Source of the DNA: Methanobacteriota archaeon
GTDB taxonomy: Archaea > Methanobacteriota > Methanobacteria > Methanobacteriales > Methanobacteriaceae
Direction: 5' to 3'
DNA: 59,417 nt
Assembly: GCA_023430285.1 (NCBI GenBank)
Contig: JAEZAV010000102.1
Span: 1 to 59,417, forward strand
Shown here: piece by piece, positions 1,759-56,327 of the stretch
Layout of the letters: every line of letters begins with the position of its first letter
Position numbering within the stretch: the stretch's first letter is position 1
Program-made: the position numbers and the translations under genes
The notes under the pieces: generated by a model
Told to the model about the DNA's origin: nothing
Databases searched by the model: none
The model's input: only the letters and a program-made list of their open reading frames with translations

Positions 1759-2853
1759 ATGAAATATGCTATAGAAACTTTTGATCTATCAAAAAAATAC
1801 AACAATGATTTTTTAGCTGTTGATGAACTCAACATGAAGATAGACAACAAAAGCATTTTCGGTTTTCTAGGACCAAATGGTGCAGGAAAAACCACAACAA
1901 TAAAAATGCTCACTTGTTTAATACAGCCCACTGGAGGAACAGCGAATGTGGCTGGTTTTGACATTGCAAAACAGCCAAACGAAGTTCGAGAAAAAATCGG
2001 AATGGTTCCACAACTCGTAAGTCTGTATGGAGATCTTACGGTACGTGAAAATATTGAACTCTGCGCAGACTTTTACGGACTTCCAACTGATTTGAAAATA
2101 AGTCGTGCTGAAGAATTAATGGAACTCGTTGATATTAAATATGCTGAAAACAAGTTGGTAAAACAATTATCTGGTGGTATGAAGCAGAAAGCATCAGTAG
2201 TTGCCAGTTTAATACATCAACCAGATATTTTATTCCTTGATGAACCAACCATAGGTTTGGATCCAACAACCAAGAGGGTTTTATGGGATTTAGTAGAAGA
2301 ATTGAACTCAGAGGGACGTACCATAATTCTATGTTCACATGATATGTACGAGGTGGAACTACTCTGTGATAAAATTGGAATCATTAATGGAGGAGTTCTA
2401 GCAGCCTACGATACACCTAGAGGTCTTAAAGACACCATGATCCATGAACAAAAAGAAGTTCGATCCTCTGAAACATCCAATGTAATTAAAATTATGGATG
2501 AACTCAGAAAAGAAAGTGATACTGAAGATAATGCCGCTTATGACCAATTAAAAGAAAAAATAGAACATGAAAACAGAGATTTAAAAGAATTAAGTGTAAT
2601 GATCAGCAATTTAGATGAAAATATGACCGATCATCTGAAAAACTTGCCTGAAGTCGATCTATTGAATGAACACGATTCTGGAAGAATAGTCATGGATATT
2701 GACTCTAAAGATGAATCTGTGAGTAAGATAATTTCCGAAATAATCAACAATGGGGGAACTATCACTTCAATATCCACTAAAGATCCTTCATTGGAAGATG
2801 TTTTCATGAGTGTAACTTCAAAGAATAAAAAAGAAGGTGCAGAAGATGGTTGA
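1759..2853 (+). CDS. ABC-2 (DrrA-type) exporter ATP-binding protein
   Basis: Walker A GPNGAGKTT, signature LSGGMKQ, Walker B ILFLDEP, C-terminal PSLEDVF. Confidence 0.9.
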   Translation: MKYAIETFDLSKKYNNDFLAVDELNMKIDNKSIFGFLGPNGAGKTTTIKMLTCLIQPTGGTANVAGFDIAKQPNEVREKIGMVPQLVSLYGDLTVRENIELCADFYGLPTDLKISRAEELMELVDIKYAENKLVKQLSGGMKQKASVVASLIHQPDILFLDEPTIGLDPTTKRVLWDLVEELNSEGRTIILCSHDMYEVELLCDKIGIINGGVLAAYDTPRGLKDTMIHEQKEVRSSETSNVIKIMDELRKESDTEDNAAYDQLKEKIEHENRDLKELSVMISNLDENMTDHLKNLPEVDLLNEHDSGRIVMDIDSKDESVSKIISEIINNGGTITSISTKDPSLEDVFMSVTSKNKKEGAEDG

Positions 2854-4015
2854 AACCAAAAAAATTATGTGGATGATCAAAAAAGATTTGATGGTCCTAT
2901 GGAGACATAAACCTCGTTTACTATCCCTATTCCTGTTCCCAATTATCATGATCACCCTTTTTGGTTATGGTATGGGAGGAACCATAAACAACATTCCAGT
3001 AGTTGTAGTGGACCAGAGTCAAGGAAACCTGTCTGATGCAACACTAAGCGCAATTAAAAGTAATACGTTGTACGATGTTAAAGAAATAACCACAGATCCC
3101 AATAAAGGATTGCAGATGGTTCAAAATGGACAGGCAAAAGCAGCCATAATTCTTCCCACGAATTATGATACTCTGAATGACACGTCGCCAAAAAGCATTG
3201 TTGTCGATGTCGATTCTTCGGATCAACTAGCATCAGGTGCGATTATACCCGCCACACAAGGTTTATTTACTCAGATTAACCAGCAAATAGCAGAACAAAA
3301 GCTTCAGTCATCATCAATATCAGTTTCAAGTAGTCAGGTAAATGGAACTCAAGTATCTCCTTACCAAAGTATATTGAACACGATTAATGTTGAAGTAAAC
3401 AAGTTATACGGTAATATCAGTTATTTAAATTTCCTTGCACCAGCAATAATTGGAATGACCATTCTCTTTGGATGTGTGTTTGGTATGGGAGAAATTGTAG
3501 CCGGTGAAAGGGAAAGAGGAGAACTTGCAAGATTGTTCATGACCCCTACTAGTGTTGCGACTGTCATTGGTGGAAAAATTATATCCAAATTAGTTCAAGA
3601 AACTGGGCGGGGAATTATCTTAATTGTGGCAGCGATAGCCCTATTTGGAATTATTATTAACGGCAGCATGGTGCTGACAATTCTGCTGTTAATACTGGGA
3701 GCGTTATGTTTCATAGGATTTGGAATTATGGTTTCTGCAAGGGTTTCATCCCAGGAAGATTTCATGCAGACTGTGATGCCCATTACAATGCCCATGATGT
3801 TTTTATCAGGAGTATTCTATCCAATAGAAACAATGCCATGGATATTCCAACAAATTGCATATATCTTACCATTAACATACGTTAACGATGCTTTAAGAGC
3901 AGTTATGTTAAAAGGATCAGGCGTAGGAGATATATGGATAGATATTGTGGTTTTACTAGGATTTACAGCAATATTCTTCTATTTAGGAGTAACGAAATTT
4001 AACAGAGACATATAA
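2846..4015 (+). CDS. ABC-2 exporter permease
   Basis: N-terminal TM helix, extracellular domain, ERERG motif and several C-terminal TM helices. ATG at 2846 overlaps the ATPase end. Confidence 0.85.
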   Translation: MVETKKIMWMIKKDLMVLWRHKPRLLSLFLFPIIMITLFGYGMGGTINNIPVVVVDQSQGNLSDATLSAIKSNTLYDVKEITTDPNKGLQMVQNGQAKAAIILPTNYDTLNDTSPKSIVVDVDSSDQLASGAIIPATQGLFTQINQQIAEQKLQSSSISVSSSQVNGTQVSPYQSILNTINVEVNKLYGNISYLNFLAPAIIGMTILFGCVFGMGEIVAGERERGELARLFMTPTSVATVIGGKIISKLVQETGRGIILIVAAIALFGIIINGSMVLTILLLILGALCFIGFGIMVSARVSSQEDFMQTVMPITMPMMFLSGVFYPIETMPWIFQQIAYILPLTYVNDALRAVMLKGSGVGDIWIDIVVLLGFTAIFFYLGVTKFNRDI

Positions 4016-4061: not shown

Positions 4062-5297
4062 ATGATTGGAAAAAAGAATATATTGATTGGAATTATGATG
4101 CTTAGCATATTCATAGGTCCAATGACAGTTTCTACTGCTTCGGCAGCAGACTGGCCAATGTTTCAAGAAAATTTGAACCATACAGCATACATGGACGAAG
4201 CTTCTGATTTCAATCCAGACACATGGTTATTCCAAACTTCTGGACTTTTAACATCAGCAGCCATAACTGATAAATTGATCTATTTCGGATCAAGCAGTGG
4301 TCTATTCTCAGCCCTTAACCTTGAAGACGGTACAAAAGTATGGGATTACAAGGCAGGAGGAAACATAACAAGCGCACCAATAGTAGTTGGAGACAATGTA
4401 TACTTCGGATCTGGAGATAGCTATCTCTATGCTTTGAATAAAAAAACTGGGGATGACGTTTGGAAATATAAAACAGGAAATGCAATAGAAACAACCCCTG
4501 CCATAGATAATGGTATAATATACTTCGGATCAGATGATCAGAGATTATACGCCCTAAATACCAACGACAGTACCAAGAAATGGGAATTCCAAACTGGAAA
4601 CGCTGTTAGATCTTCCCCTACAGTTTATAATGATACTGTATACTTTGGATCTGATGATGGAAAGATCTATGCTTTAGGCATAGCCAACGGAACACAAACA
4701 TGGGCATACGACACAGGTAGTGCCGTAAGATCATCTCCTGCCATTAACAACACAACTTTGTACATGGGAACAGATAATGGAAACTTCTATGCACTAAACA
4801 CCGCAGATGGTTCAGTTTTATGGAATTATAACCTAAATGATTCCGTGAAATCTTCAGCACTTTTAGATCCAAACGATAATGCCCTCTTCATAGGTTCAGA
4901 TAACGGAAATATAACAGCCCTTGATATGCGTGATGGAAAACTTAAATGGTCCGTCAATACCGGAAACGTTAAAACCACCCCTGCACTTATGGGAGATAAC
5001 ATCGTAGTAACTTCAGAATCTGGAACAGTGTACGTTCTAAACAAGTACAGTGGAAAAGAAGAATGGAGTTACACTCCAGGTTATTACCTATTTAATTCGC
5101 CATTGACTTCACCAATAGTGTATGGTGACGATATATTCGTGGGTGATAACAACGGAAACATGTACGCAATTGACTTCTCAAGAAAAACCGGGCCTGTTTC
5201 TAACTACCTCTACTACGTGATAGCCATAGTTGTAGTCATAGTTGGAGGATTATTAGCAGTAAGGACACTTAGAAGAAGAAGAAAAGGGAAAGAATAA
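4062..5297 (+). CDS. Membrane-anchored PQQ-like beta-propeller repeat protein
   Basis: Signal peptide, DWPMFQ start, about 8 repeats of 'SSP..vyfGS.Dg.lYAl...G...W', C-terminal TM helix and basic tail. Confidence 0.85.
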   Translation: MIGKKNILIGIMMLSIFIGPMTVSTASAADWPMFQENLNHTAYMDEASDFNPDTWLFQTSGLLTSAAITDKLIYFGSSSGLFSALNLEDGTKVWDYKAGGNITSAPIVVGDNVYFGSGDSYLYALNKKTGDDVWKYKTGNAIETTPAIDNGIIYFGSDDQRLYALNTNDSTKKWEFQTGNAVRSSPTVYNDTVYFGSDDGKIYALGIANGTQTWAYDTGSAVRSSPAINNTTLYMGTDNGNFYALNTADGSVLWNYNLNDSVKSSALLDPNDNALFIGSDNGNITALDMRDGKLKWSVNTGNVKTTPALMGDNIVVTSESGTVYVLNKYSGKEEWSYTPGYYLFNSPLTSPIVYGDDIFVGDNNGNMYAIDFSRKTGPVSNYLYYVIAIVVVIVGGLLAVRTLRRRRKGKE

Positions 5298-5325
5298 ATT
5301 TTTCCCTTATTAATTATTTTTTTTT
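5284..5325 (+). terminator. Hairpin plus T-tract terminator
   Basis: AAGGGAAA...TTTCCCTT stem followed by a long T run. Confidence 0.5.
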
Positions 5326-5380
5326 AAAAAAAATATACAATTTATAAAAATAACAAATATAAAACTAGTTTTATTAGGCT

Positions 5381-5668
5381 TCAGATGGAAGTATCATCCC
5401 TTGAAAGCTGAATTTCTATGGCAGAAACATTAGTATTTGCGCCTTCATTGTTCATAATTTCCTCTGTGCTTATGTCTATAGATTCCACTTGTGCATCAGT
5501 AATAAATCTGTTTCTAACTATCTCAGCAACATCAACCGCTCTGCTGATTGCTCTACCTCTAGCTTTTAGAACAACCTCAGAAAGTCCGCCATTCATTTGT
5601 GTTACTACTGCTAAAACGTAATTCATTACTGGTTTATTTCCAATGTATACAATATTTTCCTCTGGCAT
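5381..5668 (-). CDS. albA: DNA/RNA-binding protein Alba
   Basis: [44 protein letters not shown] precedes ATG at 5668. Confidence 0.95.
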
Positions 5669-5933: not shown

Positions 5934-6686
5934 TCATGTCCTAAAAATAATCATAACTCCGTCCAGTATGTCCGATTCGTTGACTATGGGATTAAAAGTA
6001 CCCTCAATTGGAATATAATCGTTGTCTTTAGATTTTATCGAAAAATTCTCCTCAATTACTTCAGTTGAATTGAACCTTCCAATTATGTCGTTTAAATCTA
6101 TATCTGGTATCAATTTTCCCACAGAAGTTCCAATGAAACTCTCATTAGATATTTCTGCAAAATTAGCTGCGACAGGGTTCATAAAAATAATTCTTCCATT
6201 GAGATCAGTTGCAATCGCACCTTCACTAACAGATTTGAGAACGGATTCAAGTAATTTATAATGACCATTAGCATTGTAACTTTCAGATGCGCCTTTTTGG
6301 TCCAAAATTATATCTATGGCCGTGTAAAGCTCATTTTCTTCAAATGGCTTGTGAAGAAATTCAAAGGGTTCCTTAACTATAAAAGCAGCTGGATGTGTAG
6401 ATTTAACCCTTTCAATTGTATTTTTATCTGAATAAGAAGTTAGGTAAATTATTGGAATGCCAAACTTTGATTCAATGATCTGAGCAGCATCAACTCCGTC
6501 CAATTTTCCATCAAGTTTGATATCCATTATAACTAGATCTGGATTTTTTTCTTCGCTGAATTTTACAGCGTCTTCCCCGTTGGTAAGAACGGCAACTACA
6601 TTGTAATCTGCCTTTTCAAGACTATTTTTTATGTCCTTTGCCGTAATCCCCTCATCTTCAACAACCAGAATATCTACGGGTGCCAT
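5934..6686 (-). CDS. Response regulator (REC + PAS)
   Basis: ILVVEDE, DLVIMDI and KPF motifs; C-terminal PAS region 'IATDLNGRIIFMNP'. Confidence 0.85.
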   Translation of the reverse strand: MAPVDILVVEDEGITAKDIKNSLEKADYNVVAVLTNGEDAVKFSEEKNPDLVIMDIKLDGKLDGVDAAQIIESKFGIPIIYLTSYSDKNTIERVKSTHPAAFIVKEPFEFLHKPFEENELYTAIDIILDQKGASESYNANGHYKLLESVLKSVSEGAIATDLNGRIIFMNPVAANFAEISNESFIGTSVGKLIPDIDLNDIIGRFNSTEVIEENFSIKSKDNDYIPIEGTFNPIVNESDILDGVMIIFRT

Positions 6687-46626: not shown

Positions 46627-47220
46627 ATGAAGGTATTAGGAATATGTGGAAGTCCAAGAAAACAGGCCACTCATCACGTTTTAAACGAAGCATTGCAAAT
46701 GCTTGATGAAAAAGGTTTTGAAACAGAATTTTATAGTTTGCGCGGAAAAAATATTAATCCATGTAGACACTGTGACTACTGTTTGAAACACAAACAGTGC
46801 GTGGTAAATGATGATATGCAGGATATCTATCCACTTATCACAGAAGCGAAAGGCATTATCATGGCTACGCCAGTATACAACGGAGGTTTAAGTGCTCAGC
46901 TTAAGGCTGTGATGGATCGTTGCAGAGCCTTGGGAGCACGAGACTTTGATTTTCTGCGATACAAAGTTGGAATGGCCATAGCTGTGGGTGGTGACCGCAT
47001 TGGTGGTCAAGAGCTTGCAATACAGCAAATAATGACCTTTTTTATACTAACTGGTGCAATCCCAGTTAGTGGAGGGGCCTACGGTGCCAATATGGGAGCT
47101 AACTTCTGGTCTCAGGACACCCTTGAAGGTGTGAAACAGGACGAAGAAGGATTTAAAAGTCTCAGAAAAACTGTTAAAAGATTCAGCAAGTTTATTGAAA
47201 ACTTCGAAATAGAGGAGTAA
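46627..47220 (+). CDS. Iron-sulfur flavoprotein (Isf) / flavodoxin family
   Basis: GSPRK, CRHCDYC-x5-C, TPVY, KAVMDR, GGQE. Confidence 0.85.
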   Translation: MKVLGICGSPRKQATHHVLNEALQMLDEKGFETEFYSLRGKNINPCRHCDYCLKHKQCVVNDDMQDIYPLITEAKGIIMATPVYNGGLSAQLKAVMDRCRALGARDFDFLRYKVGMAIAVGGDRIGGQELAIQQIMTFFILTGAIPVSGGAYGANMGANFWSQDTLEGVKQDEEGFKSLRKTVKRFSKFIENFEIEE

Positions 47221-47258
47221 GTGAAGCAATCACCCCCTGAGTTTTCAATGGAAAATAA

Positions 47259-47293
47259 TTATAAGTTATAAGAAATAAGTTATAAGTTCTAAC
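47259..47293. repeat. Heptad array A (5 x TTATAAG-like)
   Basis: TTATAAG TTATAAG AAATAAG TTATAAG TTCTAAC. Another in-phase TTATAAT at 47315. Confidence 0.85.
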
Positions 47294-47368
47294 AAAATAG
47301 ATTTAAAGAGATAGTTATAATTAAATTTAAAGCCTAGTTGGTCTTTAAAAAAATGTATAATTAGATTG

Positions 47369-47396
47369 TTATAAGTAATAAGTTATAAGTTATAAG
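47369..47396. repeat. Heptad array B (4 x TTATAAG-like)
   Basis: TTATAAG TAATAAG TTATAAG TTATAAG, ending 11 bp before the ferredoxin start. Confidence 0.85.
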
Positions 47397-47407
47397 GAAG
47401 ATGTTAT

Positions 47408-47620
47408 ATGAAGATCATTGTAGATGAAGACAAGTGCACCGGATGTGGAATATGTAAAGAAGCCTGTCCAAAGGGTGCTAAAATATGGGATGTAAAAAAG
47501 AAAGCCATGGCAACAAACCTTGAATTCTGCCATTTATGTACAATATGTGCAGGAAAATGTCCTGAAGGTGCCATACAGGTAATTAGAGATGAACCAAATG
47601 AGAAAAAAGACTCTGAATAG
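47408..47620 (+). CDS. 2[4Fe-4S] ferredoxin
   Basis: CTGCGICKEACP and CHLCTICAGKCP. Confidence 0.9.
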   Translation: MKIIVDEDKCTGCGICKEACPKGAKIWDVKKKAMATNLEFCHLCTICAGKCPEGAIQVIRDEPNEKKDSE

Positions 47621-48173
47621 AAAAACTTCAGAAACTGACATCAGCGTAACCATGAATTTAGATGGTAACGGTGACTACGACATAAATACCGGAATAGAAT
47701 TCTTCGATCACATGCTGAATTCCTTTGCCAGACATGGATTTATAGATCTAACCATCCATGCAAATGGAGACATAGGAGTCGATGATCATCATACCATCGA
47801 AGACGTTGGAATACTTCTTGGAGAAACGTACAACGAAGTAATTGGGACAAAAAGAGGAATTAAGAGATTTTCTCATGCACTTATTCCTATGGATGATGCC
47901 TTGGCCACAGTAGCAGTTGACATCAGTGGAAGGAGCTATGCAGTATTAGATTTCGAATTTAAGAAACCTAAAGTTGGAGATATGAGCACAGAAAATGTTG
48001 AACATTTCTTTGAATCGTTTGCAAATTCTGCAAAAATTAATATCAATGCCAAAGTTGAAGGAGAAAATGATCATCATAAAATAGAAGCTTTGTTTAAGGC
48101 ATTTGCACGTGCTATTAAGGATGCTTCTTTGATCGAACACGATTCACTTCCTTCTACCAAAGGTGCGTTGTAA
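47598..48173 (+). CDS. hisB: Imidazoleglycerol-phosphate dehydratase
   Basis: RKTSETDI, FFDHML, DDHHTIED, PMDDAL, NDHHKIEA, PSTKG. Confidence 0.95.
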   Translation: MRKKTLNRKTSETDISVTMNLDGNGDYDINTGIEFFDHMLNSFARHGFIDLTIHANGDIGVDDHHTIEDVGILLGETYNEVIGTKRGIKRFSHALIPMDDALATVAVDISGRSYAVLDFEFKKPKVGDMSTENVEHFFESFANSAKININAKVEGENDHHKIEALFKAFARAIKDASLIEHDSLPSTKGAL

Positions 48174-53681: not shown

Positions 53682-54800
53682 ATGAACAGAGTTAGAAGAA
53701 TGGAAATTCTTGGAGAATCTGCCAAATATGACAGATGTAATTATGGAAATTACAACCCCGACAATTTTTTTTCTGAGAAATTACCCGGTGTTTACAATGC
53801 AACCAATCCTAACGGAGTTTGCATGCCGCTTTTCAAGGTTTTAATGACCAATAAATGTTCAAACGACTGTACTTATTGTGTCAATAACTGTGCCAACAAA
53901 TTCAACAGAGTGGAACTATCACCCTCTGAATTGACATCAATCTTTCTAGAATACTACAATAGCAAGTTGGTTGAAGGTCTTTTTTTAAGTTCAGGGGTTC
54001 CTGGAGATATTGACGTGTCCATGGAAAACATGGTTGAGGTCGCAAGGCAGCTCAGAATGGAGCACGGCTATCAGGGTTACATTCATTTGAAGATACTACC
54101 CGGATCATCCTATGACATGATCAAAAGAGCCATGAGCCTGGCTAATCGTGTCAGTATAAACATTGAAGCAGCTACTTCTGAAGGTTTCAATGAACTATCA
54201 TCAACCAAAAATTTTAACACAGATATTTTAAGGAGAATGGCATGGATTAAAAGGCTCATGAAAAGGGATGACAATTTAGCACCATCTGGTCACACAACAC
54301 AATTCATAGTTGGTGCCTCCCATGAATCAGATTCTGATATTATAAAGAGAGTAAATTGGCTTTATAAAAAAATGGATATTAGACGAAGCTACTTCAGTGC
54401 TTTCAATTCCATGGCGGGCACCCCCCTTGAAGGTCATGAAGAACCTGCTCCTTTAAGAACTGGCCGACTCTACCAAGCAGATCATCTTGTTAAATCCTAT
54501 GGATTCGATCTGAAAGAACTGACCTTTGAAGAAGATGGTAACATGAAACTTGATATGGATCCTAAGTATGTTACTGCAGTTTCGAACATGGATATGTTCC
54601 CAATTGAACTCAACACAGCAACTTATAAAGAACTACTCAGAGTCCCGGGTATTGGAAAAATCTCGGCCAGAAGGATTATTGAATCTAGAAAACGTGGCAA
54701 ACAATATAAAAATTTAGAAGAACTTAAAAATATTGGCGTAAATATTAAAAAGGCTGAAATATTTGTTAAACTTAAAAATTCGTATCAAACTACACTTTAA
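53682..54800 (+). CDS. Radical SAM protein with C-terminal HhH (putative DNA modification/repair type)
   Basis: CSNDCTYC, GLFLSSG, GYIHLK, RLYQAD, LLRVPGIG. Confidence 0.85.
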   Translation: MNRVRRMEILGESAKYDRCNYGNYNPDNFFSEKLPGVYNATNPNGVCMPLFKVLMTNKCSNDCTYCVNNCANKFNRVELSPSELTSIFLEYYNSKLVEGLFLSSGVPGDIDVSMENMVEVARQLRMEHGYQGYIHLKILPGSSYDMIKRAMSLANRVSINIEAATSEGFNELSSTKNFNTDILRRMAWIKRLMKRDDNLAPSGHTTQFIVGASHESDSDIIKRVNWLYKKMDIRRSYFSAFNSMAGTPLEGHEEPAPLRTGRLYQADHLVKSYGFDLKELTFEEDGNMKLDMDPKYVTAVSNMDMFPIELNTATYKELLRVPGIGKISARRIIESRKRGKQYKNLEELKNIGVNIKKAEIFVKLKNSYQTTL

Positions 54801-54838: not shown

Positions 54839-54894
54839 GTATAAGTTATAACTTACAAGATATAACTTAGAACTTATAAGTTATAAGTTATCAG
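54839..54894. repeat. Heptad array C (8 x TTATAA[G/C]-like)
   Basis: GTATAAG TTATAAC TTACAAG ATATAAC TTAGAAC TTATAAG TTATAAG TTATCAG. The last unit overlaps the stop codon of the ParA-partner gene. Confidence 0.85.
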
Positions 54895-55313
54895 ATATTT
54901 TTGTCTTCAAACACTTCCCAAAGTTCAGGGTACTTGTCTTTAACAGCATCCTCTATCAGGGCAGAAGCTTCCTTACTAATACTGAATTCCGGCTTTGTTT
55001 TTTTCAGCAACCTTAACACTGCAGCTGATTTAGCTGACCATAAAGATATTCGGGGGTTTTTATTTACCTCATCGATAACACTGTCCACAAGGTCTTCTTG
55101 AATAAAGTTGTCTTGGATTTCCGATTTAGTTTTCTTAGTGGTGCTCTGTTTCTTAGGTGTTGTTTTGCGTTTAGTGGTTTTGGGCTTTGAAGTTTTAGAT
55201 CTTGGTTTTTGACTAGATTTTATTGTTTCTTCAGGTTTCTTCTCTTCTTGTGGTTCCATTCGAATTAATGCATCTAACCCTCTTCCAAGGGCACTTTCTT
55301 TTTTCTGAGTCAT
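54891..55313 (-). CDS. ParA partner: N-terminal LGRGLDAL peptide, basic linker, probable ribbon-helix-helix domain
   Basis: SALGRGLDALI; K/T/S/P-rich linker; C-terminal strand-helix-helix pattern (PRISLWS-AKSAAVLRLLKK-SISKEASALIEDAV); ATGA overlap with parA. Confidence 0.7.
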   Translation of the reverse strand: MTQKKESALGRGLDALIRMEPQEEKKPEETIKSSQKPRSKTSKPKTTKRKTTPKKQSTTKKTKSEIQDNFIQEDLVDSVIDEVNKNPRISLWSAKSAAVLRLLKKTKPEFSISKEASALIEDAVKDKYPELWEVFEDKNI

Positions 55314-56095
55314 TTATTGTCCACCATCCCGTCGATCTTGATGATTTCCTTAGCCAGATCAACGTAAGCCTGGGAACCACTTGATTCTTCATCATATATT
55401 ATACAAGGTTTACCATGGCTCGGTGCTTCTGCTAGGGTAACATTTCGAGGAATGGTAGTCTTAAATATGTACTCCGATGATCCAAAGTACTCCTTAACAT
55501 TGCTGTATACATCCCTTCCAAGCCGTGTTCTTGAATCGTAGAGCGTGAGTAGAATACCTTTGATTGGAGAAGGACTTTTTAATCTACTTTCCACTAATTG
55601 TATAGCTTCTAACAAATCTGCCATACCTTCCAAGGCATAAAATTCAGCTTGTATAGGTATTATAACACTGTCTGCAGCCACAAGACAATTGATAGTCAAA
55701 ATACCCAATGAAGGCGGAACATCAATGAATATATAATCGTAATCCTCTGCCACACCTTCCATTGCCATTTCTAGTATGGTGTGATATCCCACTTCTTTAC
55801 TTAATTCAATTTCAGCACCACTCAAAGCAATATTGCTCGGTACAACATCAAGCCCTGAAACATCGGTTGAAACAGTTGCATCCTCAACATTACTGTTTCC
55901 TGTTAAAACTGAATATATGGTGCTATCTACTTCATTCTTTTGTATTCCAAAACCTGTTGTTGCATTTCCCTGTGGATCCATATCCACAACGAGAACACGC
56001 TTATCGTTAAGTGCAAGGGCTGCTGCTAAATTTACTGCAGTTGTGGTTTTACCACAGCCCCCTTTTTGATTTAATATTGCTATTATTTCAGCCAT
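55310..56095 (-). CDS. parA: ParA/Soj-family ATPase
   Basis: Deviant Walker A NQKGGCGKTT, DMDPQGNAT, DVPPSLG, QAEFYALEG, YDSRT, IPRNVTLAEAPSHG. GGAGG precedes ATG 56095. Confidence 0.9.
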   Translation of the reverse strand: MAEIIAILNQKGGCGKTTTAVNLAAALALNDKRVLVVDMDPQGNATTGFGIQKNEVDSTIYSVLTGNSNVEDATVSTDVSGLDVVPSNIALSGAEIELSKEVGYHTILEMAMEGVAEDYDYIFIDVPPSLGILTINCLVAADSVIIPIQAEFYALEGMADLLEAIQLVESRLKSPSPIKGILLTLYDSRTRLGRDVYSNVKEYFGSSEYIFKTTIPRNVTLAEAPSHGKPCIIYDEESSGSQAYVDLAKEIIKIDGMVDNK

Positions 56096-56116
56096 GTGGT
56101 CTGCCTCCATTGATTA

Positions 56117-56151
56117 TTATAAGTTCTAAATTATAACTTATAACTTATAAT
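56117..56151. repeat. Heptad array D (5 x TTATAA[G/C]-like) in the parA promoter
   Basis: TTATAAG TTCTAAA TTATAAC TTATAAC TTATAAT between the minus-strand TATA (TTTATAT, 56156-56150) and the parA RBS. Confidence 0.85.
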
Positions 56152-56327
56152 ATAAATATTTTTGTCAAATTCCCAAGCCACACCAGGGATAATAGATTAA
56201 ATTAATCAAATTTCCAAAATAAAAAAGAATTACGTCCTAGAATTAGAATAAAAAATAATTATTGGACCAAAAAATAGACCACCAACGTGATCTGACAAAA
56301 AAAATTAAAAAAATAGAAGAATAGGGT

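Follow-up and report, generated by a model that had tools for sequence, protein, structure and literature searches.

Archaeal chromosome segregation is understood only for Sulfolobales, and a 2016 review listed the appearance and the clustering of archaeal centromeres among its open questions (PMC5120986). We analysed a two-gene operon, segAB, in 59,417 nucleotides of DNA from a Methanobacteriota archaeon of the family Methanobacteriaceae (GenBank assembly GCA_023430285.1, contig JAEZAV010000102.1, positions 1 to 59,417; hereafter the window), which encodes a ParA-type ATPase and a small adaptor and is bordered by arrays of the 7-bp unit TTATAAS, where S is G or C. We compared it with SegAB of Saccharolobus solfataricus and Sulfolobus acidocaldarius (PDB 7DUV, 7DV2 and 7DUT; PMC8682754, PMC12284271, bioRxiv 10.1101/2025.04.15.649018). 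It has been reported that Sulfolobus SegB is a ribbon-helix-helix (RHH) centromere binder with a disordered N-terminus that stimulates the SegA ATPase, that one SegB dimer occupies each half-site in the crystal structure (PMC8682754), and that the site defined by chromatin immunoprecipitation sequencing and footprinting is TCTAGA-S-TCTAGA, approximately 83% of the sites being intragenic (PMC12284271). In the euryarchaeon Thermococcus the latter paper judged no site near segAB to be convincing; methanogens are not mentioned in it. For Methanobacteriales, segAB is already in print: M. thermautotrophicus is named in PMC5120986, and further homologues of the order are listed in bioRxiv 10.1101/2025.04.15.649018. 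The original prediction for this locus, made from the letters of the window, had known of no characterisation of the system in Methanobacteriales, which applies to experiments but not to the family's listing there.

The locus shares with Sulfolobus SegAB an operon of overlapping ParA and small adaptor genes, a C-terminal domain that is homologous by sequence (RHH in Sulfolobus) and has a K/R-D/N-P-K/R-I..WS strand, an adaptor N-terminus predicted to be disordered (that of Sulfolobus stimulates the ATPase), and candidate sites just upstream of segA as well as elsewhere on the chromosome. The sites are also alike in plan, a 6-bp palindrome followed by S and a second 6-bp palindrome in a 7-bp register. 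In contrast, the hexamer is TCTAGA in Sulfolobus and TTATAA here, different at 4 of 6 positions; hexamers come in pairs there and in arrays of 3 to ~78 heptads here; and the Sulfolobus sites are scattered and mostly intragenic, whereas the arrays here are intergenic in the window and lie in an origin-proximal zone. The proteins differ as well, since the N-terminus of SegB is ParB-like here and gave no alignment with the Sulfolobus N-terminus in PDB and profile searches, and Sulfolobus SegA has 220 amino acids (7dut, 2.9e-19) while the ATPase here is a Soj-type ParA of 261 amino acids (8ray, 1.7e-70).

Other partition systems resemble the locus in part. Omega of plasmid pSM19035 recognises arrays in which 7-bp repeats are contiguous, and both omega and ParG of TP228 are autorepressors. 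Both of these type Ib adaptors are small RHH dimers with a flexible N-terminal tail that activates the ATPase, as is predicted here; unlike the adaptor of this locus, to which they show no detectable sequence similarity, they belong to plasmid systems and work with delta- or ParF-type partners, whereas the present system has a Soj-type partner, lies on the chromosome near the origin and is conserved throughout the class. SegB has been described as structurally similar to ParG, omega and ParR (PMC8682754). In bacterial ParABS (Soj/Spo0J), mutation has shown that L11, L15, L18 and I19 of Myxococcus xanthus ParB, together with R13, bind a ParA pocket made of V116, L150, L152, L155, L187 and L192 (PMC12462528). 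The locus resembles ParABS in having a ParA that is a close homologue of chromosomal Soj/ParA, an N-terminal L-G-R/K-G-L-x-x-L-I in the adaptor, six hydrophobic pocket residues in the ParA and sites near the origin, and differs in having heptad arrays where ParABS has a 16-bp parS and in an adaptor that has neither the ParB/Srx cytidine triphosphatase (CTPase) domain nor a helix-turn-helix domain, so that CTP-gated clamp loading, sliding and the juxtaposition of peptides cannot apply to it. Finally, HpaAB of Haloferax volcanii pHV3 is likewise a euryarchaeal pair of a bacterial-type ParA and a largely disordered adaptor of ~150 amino acids with an RHH motif; the N-terminus of HpaB is needed for ordered positioning and its site, hpaS, is specific. 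HpaB differs in being described as without sequence similarity to known centromere binders and in serving a secondary chromosome, and the available portion of that paper describes no heptad-array centromere (PMC13722703).

From the evidence below we put at roughly 75% the probability that the locus is a chromosomal segAB partition module of a Methanobacterium, in which the TTATAAS arrays are SegB-bound, centromere-like sites and a ParB-type peptide drives a Soj-type SegA.

The segAB operon and its ATPase

The genes, the protein segments and the candidate promoter element of the operon are as follows.

55310..56095, minus strand: segA, Soj-type ParA ATPase, 261 amino acids from ATG 56095 (listed as an open reading frame (ORF) at 55310..56110, 266 amino acids from ATG 56110)
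54891..55313, minus strand: segB, 140 amino acids, predicted to encode the centromere-binding adaptor (TGA stop at 54891-54893 included)
55263..55289, minus strand: predicted ParB-type ParA-binding motif LGRGLDALI, SegB residues 9-17, from sequence and conservation among homologues
55104..55262, minus strand: linker, SegB residues 18-70, low-complexity and rich in K, T, S and P, predicted disordered (predicted local distance difference test (pLDDT) ~50-53 over residues 21-70)
54894..55103, minus strand: predicted SegB-type RHH DNA-binding domain, residues 71-140, from homology to 7duv/7dv2, with strand segment K85-N-P-R-I-S-L-W-S93
56149..56158, minus strand: TATA-box-like ATTTATATT that adjoins array D at its 5' edge, putative promoter element

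The stop codon of segA and the start codon of segB overlap as ATGA (tcat on the plus strand at 55310-55313), and the 140-amino-acid product begins MTQKKESALGRGLDALI in the ORF list. Because GGAGG lies 8 nt 5' of ATG 56095 and the parA paralogues of the genome begin likewise, this ATG is the likely start of segA. Its product matched the Pfam families AAA_31 (1.9e-65) and CbiA (7e-26) and carries the deviant Walker A sequence NQKGGCGKTT, which fits KGGxGK[ST]; at 117 bits it scored below the 180-bit cut-off of the NCBIfam equivalog ParA_partition. The best solved relatives were M. xanthus ParA (8ray, 1.7e-70), Helicobacter pylori Soj (6iub, 9.4e-62) and Thermus thermophilus Soj (1wcv, 7.4e-56), with Sulfolobus SegA a distant match rather than the closest one, and the name segA is owed to genomic context alone.

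The adaptor is homologous to Sulfolobus SegB

Residues 60-136 of the 140-amino-acid partner aligned to S. solfataricus SegB (7duv/7dv2), 7duv being matched at an E value of 5.2e-7 with the single sequence and of 1.3e-17 with a profile of 40 SegB homologues (alignment A1). By this homology the protein is a SegB orthologue whose C-terminal domain corresponds to the RHH domain of the solved Sulfolobus protein. In A1, conservation reaches 90% or more at N86, P87, R88 and S93, and the segment K85 to S93 matches 8 of 9 positions of the signature K/R-D/N-P-K/R-I-G/T-V/L-W-S used in bioRxiv 10.1101/2025.04.15.649018, position 6 being S and not G/T. R88 occupies the place of Sulfolobus K52, which has been reported to be essential for DNA binding and to be Arg in euryarchaea (PMC8682754). 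An AlphaFold2 monomer model built with A1 placed helices at residues 73-85, 94-104, 114-127 and 129-137 (pLDDT 74-93) and left the strand unformed; the helices follow the same order as the SegB elements described in PMC8682754. Pfam and NCBIfam assigned the protein to no family, and we discarded Glycoprotein_G and BamI, which appeared there at chance-level scores. No ParG or omega chain was found among the PDB matches at E values up to 10 with the single sequence or up to 1 with the profile. Pfam likewise found no ParB/Srx CTPase domain (PF02195, ParB_N) in the protein, and none was found in the assembly, which comprises 2.14 Mb in 201 contigs and is 82.6% complete. The linker varies in length and charge among the homologues, being basic here and acidic in other genera; because of this its charge is not a conserved trait, and with lengths so different we rejected the idea that a basic linker is a conserved DNA-contact feature.

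Within the family, SegB was matched in 114 of 121 genomes and in 27 of 27 genera; in a sample of the phylum the figures were 284 of 301 genomes and 30 of 30 genera. Much of the original prediction for the two genes has stood: the upstream gene is a ParA by its AAA_31 match, it is coupled through ATGA to the 140-amino-acid ORF, and the sequence, A1 and the model bear out the LGRGL peptide near the N-terminus, the disordered linker after it and the compact domain at the C-terminus. The absence of a CTPase domain agrees with Pfam, and the guess of an RHH fold gains support from the homology to SegB. What has to be given up is the idea of a new hybrid par system merely analogous to SegB, the partner being an orthologue by its 7duv match, and the basic linker that was noted is real here but not general.

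A ParB-type peptide at the SegB N-terminus

In alignment A1, G10 and G12 of SegB are invariant and L9 is nearly so. The pattern [LIVMF]G[RK]G[LIVMF] occurred within the first 40 residues of all 120 close SegB homologues and of 69 among 150 representatives of clusters at 50% identity (81 of the 150 with a looser version), and past residue 40 in none of these 150. The central position alternates between R and K among the homologues, as in ParB. Furthermore, L9, R11, L13, L16 and I17 have the spacing of L11, R13, L15, L18 and I19 in M. xanthus ParB, and the positions of the M. xanthus ParA pocket align to I96, L130, I132, I135, L167 and L172 of the segA product, all six of which are hydrophobic. 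When residues 1-25 were compared with the PDB, the sole match was the N-terminus of T. thermophilus Spo0J (1vz0; RKPSGLGRGLEALL), at an E value of 1.7 that is not significant alone. A complex prediction for SegB residues 1-40 and a pair of SegA chains, run without controls, scored 0.01 and weighs neither way on binding.

It has been proposed that the N-termini of euryarchaeal SegB proteins are poorly conserved and "of unknown function", and that the system was transferred from Sulfolobaceae (bioRxiv 10.1101/2025.04.15.649018). Contrary to this view, the alignments show a well-conserved ParB-type motif in SegB that is matched to a Soj-type ATPase. No paper connecting the LGRGL peptide with archaea was found in the literature searched.

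Heptad arrays border segAB across relatives

The window contains four arrays, all of them intergenic, the unit counts of C and D being read by eye.

56116..56151, no strand: array D, 5 heptads, on the gene strand TTATAAG TTATAAG TTATAAT TTAGAAC TTATAAT; candidate SegB site and operator
54839..54894, no strand: array C, 8 heptads immediately past the 3' end of segB, the last unit overlapping the segB stop codon
47259..47293, no strand: array A, 5 heptads, one of them degenerate, 39 nt past the stop of a flavoprotein-like ORF (46627-47220)
47369..47396, no strand: array B, 4 heptads; 12 nt separate its end from ATG 47408, where a small ferredoxin-like ORF starts

Array D ends 21 nt before ATG 56095 and thus lies between the TATA-like box and the start codon of segA. 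Array C fills part of the spacer between segB and a convergent radical-SAM gene that ends at 54800, and array A keeps its relative position in two complete genomes of the same genus (G025 and G075). Tandem Repeats Finder reported period 7 at 54840-54891 (7.4 copies, 77% matches) and at 56117-56150 (4.9 copies, 85% matches), and two further arrays of the TTATAAS type at 47255-47299 and 47368-47408. The double heptad TTATAASTTATAAS, with at most one mismatch, had 23 matches in the window, as against 0.30 expected and a maximum of 3 in 100 shuffles, and all 23 fell within the four arrays (47259-47293, 47369-47396, 54839-54894 and 56117-56151). Across the assembly the double heptad formed 6 clusters, namely the four of the window, an array on another contig (C49:11661-11702) that has the same sequence as one at 98.8 kb in G025, and an isolated double unit on contig C160; a looser in-phase scan added one degenerate run of 4 units with 4 mismatches (C39:7124-7151). 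Triple heptads with at most two mismatches numbered 27 in the assembly, all in the four window arrays or the C49 array, and a reversed-pattern control gave 0. From the counts in the window, the assembly and the control, the arrays are real, non-random and not uniformly spread over the genome.

The same type of array was found near segAB in relatives, which are kin, so that the locus counts are not independent events. Among the best 30 loci of the family, Tandem Repeats Finder detected period-7 TTATAAS arrays in all 30, at both operon ends or at the 5' end, and 20 further loci, one per other genus, all had TTATAA-type arrays of period 7, 14 or 21 near segAB, with segA present in 19 of the 20. 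In these 50 loci segA stood beside segB 48 times. When we required at least 3 in-phase units with at most one mismatch each, tolerating one bad unit between good ones, an upstream array was found in 45 of the 48 loci with a segA match and a downstream array in 36 of 50; the three upstream misses (L009, L011 and L022) do, by Tandem Repeats Finder or by eye, carry arrays whose phase is broken by a 1-nt deletion, and in these loci, too, A/T boxes resembling ATTTATATT adjoin the arrays. In three other families, arrays of 7-9 units lay directly upstream of segA in 4 of 5 loci; in the fifth (G131) another gene precedes segA and no array is adjacent. Over 772 in-phase units the hexamer positions were 86-92% conserved, and position 7 was C in 42% and G in 35% (G/C, 77%). 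Because the hexamer is palindromic, G as against C at this position only marks the strand that is read, and the actual requirement is a G:C pair between hexamers.

The original prediction had described two arrays, with 5 units over the promoter and 8 at the 3' end, which Tandem Repeats Finder, the shuffles and inspection by eye all confirmed, and it had staked its case on orthologous operons having such arrays and on the arrays not being uniform over the genome; the former is seen in the 45 of 48 upstream arrays and in 4 of 5 loci of other families, and the latter in the few clusters, with reversed controls of 0-3. Its two-sided bracketing of the operon is found in the window but is not universal, given the downstream count.

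Copy number ranged from 3 to ~78 units between genera. In L034 (4523-5053, ~76 units), L037 (4601-5146, ~78 units) and L045 (1299-1761) the TTATAA-type array upstream of segA is very large, measuring 460-550 bp with ~33-78 units. Large arrays of this kind may break assemblies, and contig C144 of the present assembly starts inside a heptad array. One locus, L035 (G005:C1:21835-28038, ~2496-3272), has segB as two overlapping weak fragments, no segA found in the locus, and a TTATAAC x7.9 array nearby; in its genus (g6) segB was matched in 2 of 4 genomes, and L035 may be a decaying cassette.

Arrays cluster close to the replication origin

In five genomes of the same genus (4 complete ones and the present assembly) we counted 118 triple heptads with at most two mismatches, 20-27 in each, with 0-3 per genome for the reversed pattern; all lie in 4-5 arrays within ~27 kb around segAB, those of G025 being at 72.8, 72.9, 80.4, 81.7 and 98.8 kb. 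Five genomes of other families had 14-24 triple heptads each, with controls all 0. In three of these, of family f3, the array clusters are 70-90 kb across and include segAB: G133 (1286.9, 1294.9, 1318.0 (segAB), 1337.2 and 1362.1 kb), G134 (16.7, 39.45 (segAB), 58.5 and 88.3 kb) and G128 (1689.1, 5.9 (segAB), 24.3 and 50.9 kb). In G131 six arrays, each of four perfect heptads, were found from 1073.6 to 1136.5 kb.

The main Cdc6/Orc1 gene, identified by PF09079, lies 10-85 kb from segB in 11 of 14 complete genomes: 31, 31, 31 and 35 kb in four of the same genus, 24, 24, 10, 40 and 85 kb in five other genera, and 39 kb in both G133 and G134. G128 is a twelfth case, with the pair on either side of the start of the record, and G131, at ~160-200 kb (from a rounded genome size), is an exception to origin proximity. 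The main cdc6 of G025 is preceded by a 1.35-kb spacer in which 4+3 inverted TTTACACTTGAAAT-type repeats flank an AT-rich stretch (L057, G025:C1:108000-116000; 5214-5400 and 5989-6188). Judged by the architecture of the Methanothermobacter oriC, we take these repeats to be like origin recognition boxes (ORB), which makes the spacer a candidate oriC ~31 kb from segAB. Like the parS sites of bacteria, the arrays are thus grouped near the origin, the genomes compared being kin and not independent cases.

In G002, which belongs to another genus, perfect or near-perfect triple heptads were also seen far from segAB, at ~1310.25, ~1340.83 and ~2303.82 kb of G002:C1. A second Cdc6-like gene, a weaker one, is located at 1291.3 kb, 19 and 49 kb from two of these arrays, which hints that arrays and origins are tied more widely.

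Paralogous operons carry repeats of their own

Two further parA-segB-like operons are present in the assembly, at 347-1108 and 1111-1449 of C144 and at 6144-5380 and 5387-5031 of C139. Their adaptors have the strand residues NKPRLAFWD and NQPRISFWD and N-termini that differ from that of SegB. The C144 operon has TAGTATT x15 at the start of the contig and TAGTAAA-type units after the adaptor gene, and the C139 operon has an 8-bp ATTAAGTT x8 array after its adaptor gene. If such repeats are the cognate sites of the adaptors, each adaptor should have a repeat of its own, as is seen here. Neither paralogous adaptor has a clean LGRGL motif, that of C139 starting ...GGLGNDMGKLL, and the paralogues are chromosomal in complete relatives; these operons may be secondary partition systems or part of integrated elements.

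Neighbouring features and RNA-library contigs

Downstream of array B, the ORF at 47408-47620 (plus strand) encodes ~70 amino acids that resemble a 4Fe-4S ferredoxin (MKIIVDEDKCTGCG...) and overlaps the start of the next ORF (47589-48173). Array B stands in the same position to this ORF as array D does to segA, and the ORF might be co-regulated by SegB.

In three RNA-library runs of one sludge study there were contigs that match most of segA and segB at 90-99% identity, and one contig of 195 nt spans array C. In a further contig, from a relative with ~94% identity, 56172 is joined to 56328, so that 155 bp of the segA-thrS spacer (56173-56327) are skipped and array D is kept. These contigs are sequences of relatives, give no strand or start information and may reflect carry-over of DNA, and we did not count them as evidence of expression.

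Discussion

Our reading of the locus as a chromosomal partition module leads to the following model. SegB dimers would bind the palindromic TTATAA, with successive dimers 7 bp apart and a G:C pair between the hexamers, and an array of 4-8 heptads (up to ~78 in other genera) would nucleate a helical SegB-DNA complex. The approximately five arrays over ~27 kb around segAB, beside the cdc6/ORB origin, would then act as an origin-proximal centromere (segS). Many flexible N-terminal peptides of SegB may dock into the hydrophobic pocket that SegA-ATP, bound to the nucleoid, has at its dimer interface, and stimulate its ATPase, as the bacterial ParB peptide does, which would lead to segregation of the origin region. 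Because array D sits between the TATA-like box and the start codon, SegB bound there would be expected to repress segAB as well.

A bolder version of this model, to which we give even odds, is that Methanobacteria segregate their chromosomes through a bacterial-style, origin-proximal centromere of dispersed TTATAAS arrays. These would be read by a SegB chimera of a ParB peptide and an archaeal RHH domain, which would drive a Soj-type ParA without the CTP-dependent ParB clamp, avidity coming from helical SegB filaments on up to ~80 heptads.

Several observations weigh against the partition reading in its simple form. Fourteen of the 50 loci have no downstream array, and G041 holds degenerate arrays only. 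G131 has no array at segAB and its six arrays are 31-94 kb off; in G122 segAB lies ~290 kb from cdc6 (from a rounded genome size), though one array is 4 kb from cdc6; and the distant arrays of G002 are 250 kb and 710-740 kb from segAB. A Foldseek search of the PDB with the monomer model of SegB gave nothing at E values of 0.001 or below, so that the predicted fold found no significant match (7dv2 ranked third and sixth, at E values of 4-6), a monomer of an intertwined dimer being a poor query. Because the hexamer differs at most of its positions, the architectural parallel with the Sulfolobus site should be read as an analogy. The ParA is far nearer to bacterial Soj than to Sulfolobus SegA, so that its dynamics may differ from those of the Sulfolobus system. 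Finally, the hexamer TTATAA is similar to an archaeal TATA box, and two of the arrays, B and D, occupy promoter positions, so that the arrays may be purely regulatory or may be bound by another protein.

The first of these two alternatives, that the arrays are transcriptional operators only and SegB is an autorepressor or the repressor of a small regulon, like omega and ParG and with no role in segregation, seems to us unlikely. It would account well for array D between the TATA-like box and the segA start and for array B just ahead of the ferredoxin-like ATG, and autorepression is found in RHH centromere binders such as omega and ParG. The Sulfolobus sites, too, might be regulatory (PMC5120986). 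On the other hand, ~76-78 heptads over more than 500 bp (L034 and L037) far exceed what an operator needs, arrays C and A sit 3' of genes, the arrays cluster beside the origin, and they are retained in G131 though none adjoins segAB there. The protein, moreover, keeps both a peptide of the ParA-activating type and a ParA partner.

Still less probable is the second alternative, that the arrays are bound by another factor, such as TATA-binding protein and transcription factor B, a chromatin protein or a replication-origin protein, and stay near segAB through conserved synteny. The TATA-like hexamer and the origin-proximal position of the arrays, 4-15 kb from cdc6 in G122, G133 and G025, would suit such a factor. 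The arrays, however, remain immediately 5' of segA over 27 genera and three further families while the neighbouring genes change, the paralogous parA-segB operons have different flanking repeats, and the G/C at every seventh position, in 77% of the 772 units, interrupts 8-bp TATA boxes. In addition, the 6+1 architecture is that of the experimentally defined SegB site (PMC12284271).

ParA-like ATPases position many kinds of cargo, the ParA here is of bacterial type, and the same genome has two more cassettes of the kind; the pair could on these grounds be thought to position a protein or an integrated element instead of the chromosome, or to be the remnant of a plasmid partition cassette. We hold this to be very improbable in view of the presence of SegB in all 30 genera of the phylum sample, its syntenic, origin-proximal place on the chromosome, and an adaptor that is by homology an RHH-type DNA-binding protein accompanied by chromosomal repeat arrays. 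That the arrays are non-functional AT-rich slippage repeats, as their variable copy number might suggest, is close to refuted by the shuffles and the genome-wide counts, which confine them to few clusters with controls of 0-3, and by a unit sequence conserved across four families.

On the partition reading, both the family (SegAB) and its occurrence in this host group were known before, and the system is for that reason not categorically new. Absent from the literature searched were the class-wide association of heptad arrays with segAB and their clustering near the origin, the ParB-type peptide of SegB with its matching pocket, and paralogues with different repeats. No description of TTATAAC or TTATAAG as an array unit in connection with Methanobacteriales was found there, and the available portion of bioRxiv 10.1101/2025.04.15.649018 describes neither the arrays nor an LGRGL-type motif; its supplementary figures (Fig. 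S4-S5) and those of PMC8682754 (Fig. S2B and S12), which possibly hold euryarchaeal alignments or sites, were outside the search.

The locus offers an explicit candidate for a centromere sequence across the class, with positions mapped relative to oriC, and a residue-level hypothesis for the contact between SegB and its ATPase. Both are testable in Methanothermobacter, for which a shuttle-vector system reportedly exists. Furthermore, the ParA-binding peptide of ParB is at least conserved, and perhaps working, on a wholly different DNA-binding scaffold, which bears on how ParA adaptors have evolved. If the chimera of ParB peptide and archaeal RHH domain is real, the ParB-type peptide would be an ancient and portable module, and this would speak against euryarchaeal SegB having come recently from Sulfolobaceae and carrying an N-terminus without known function.

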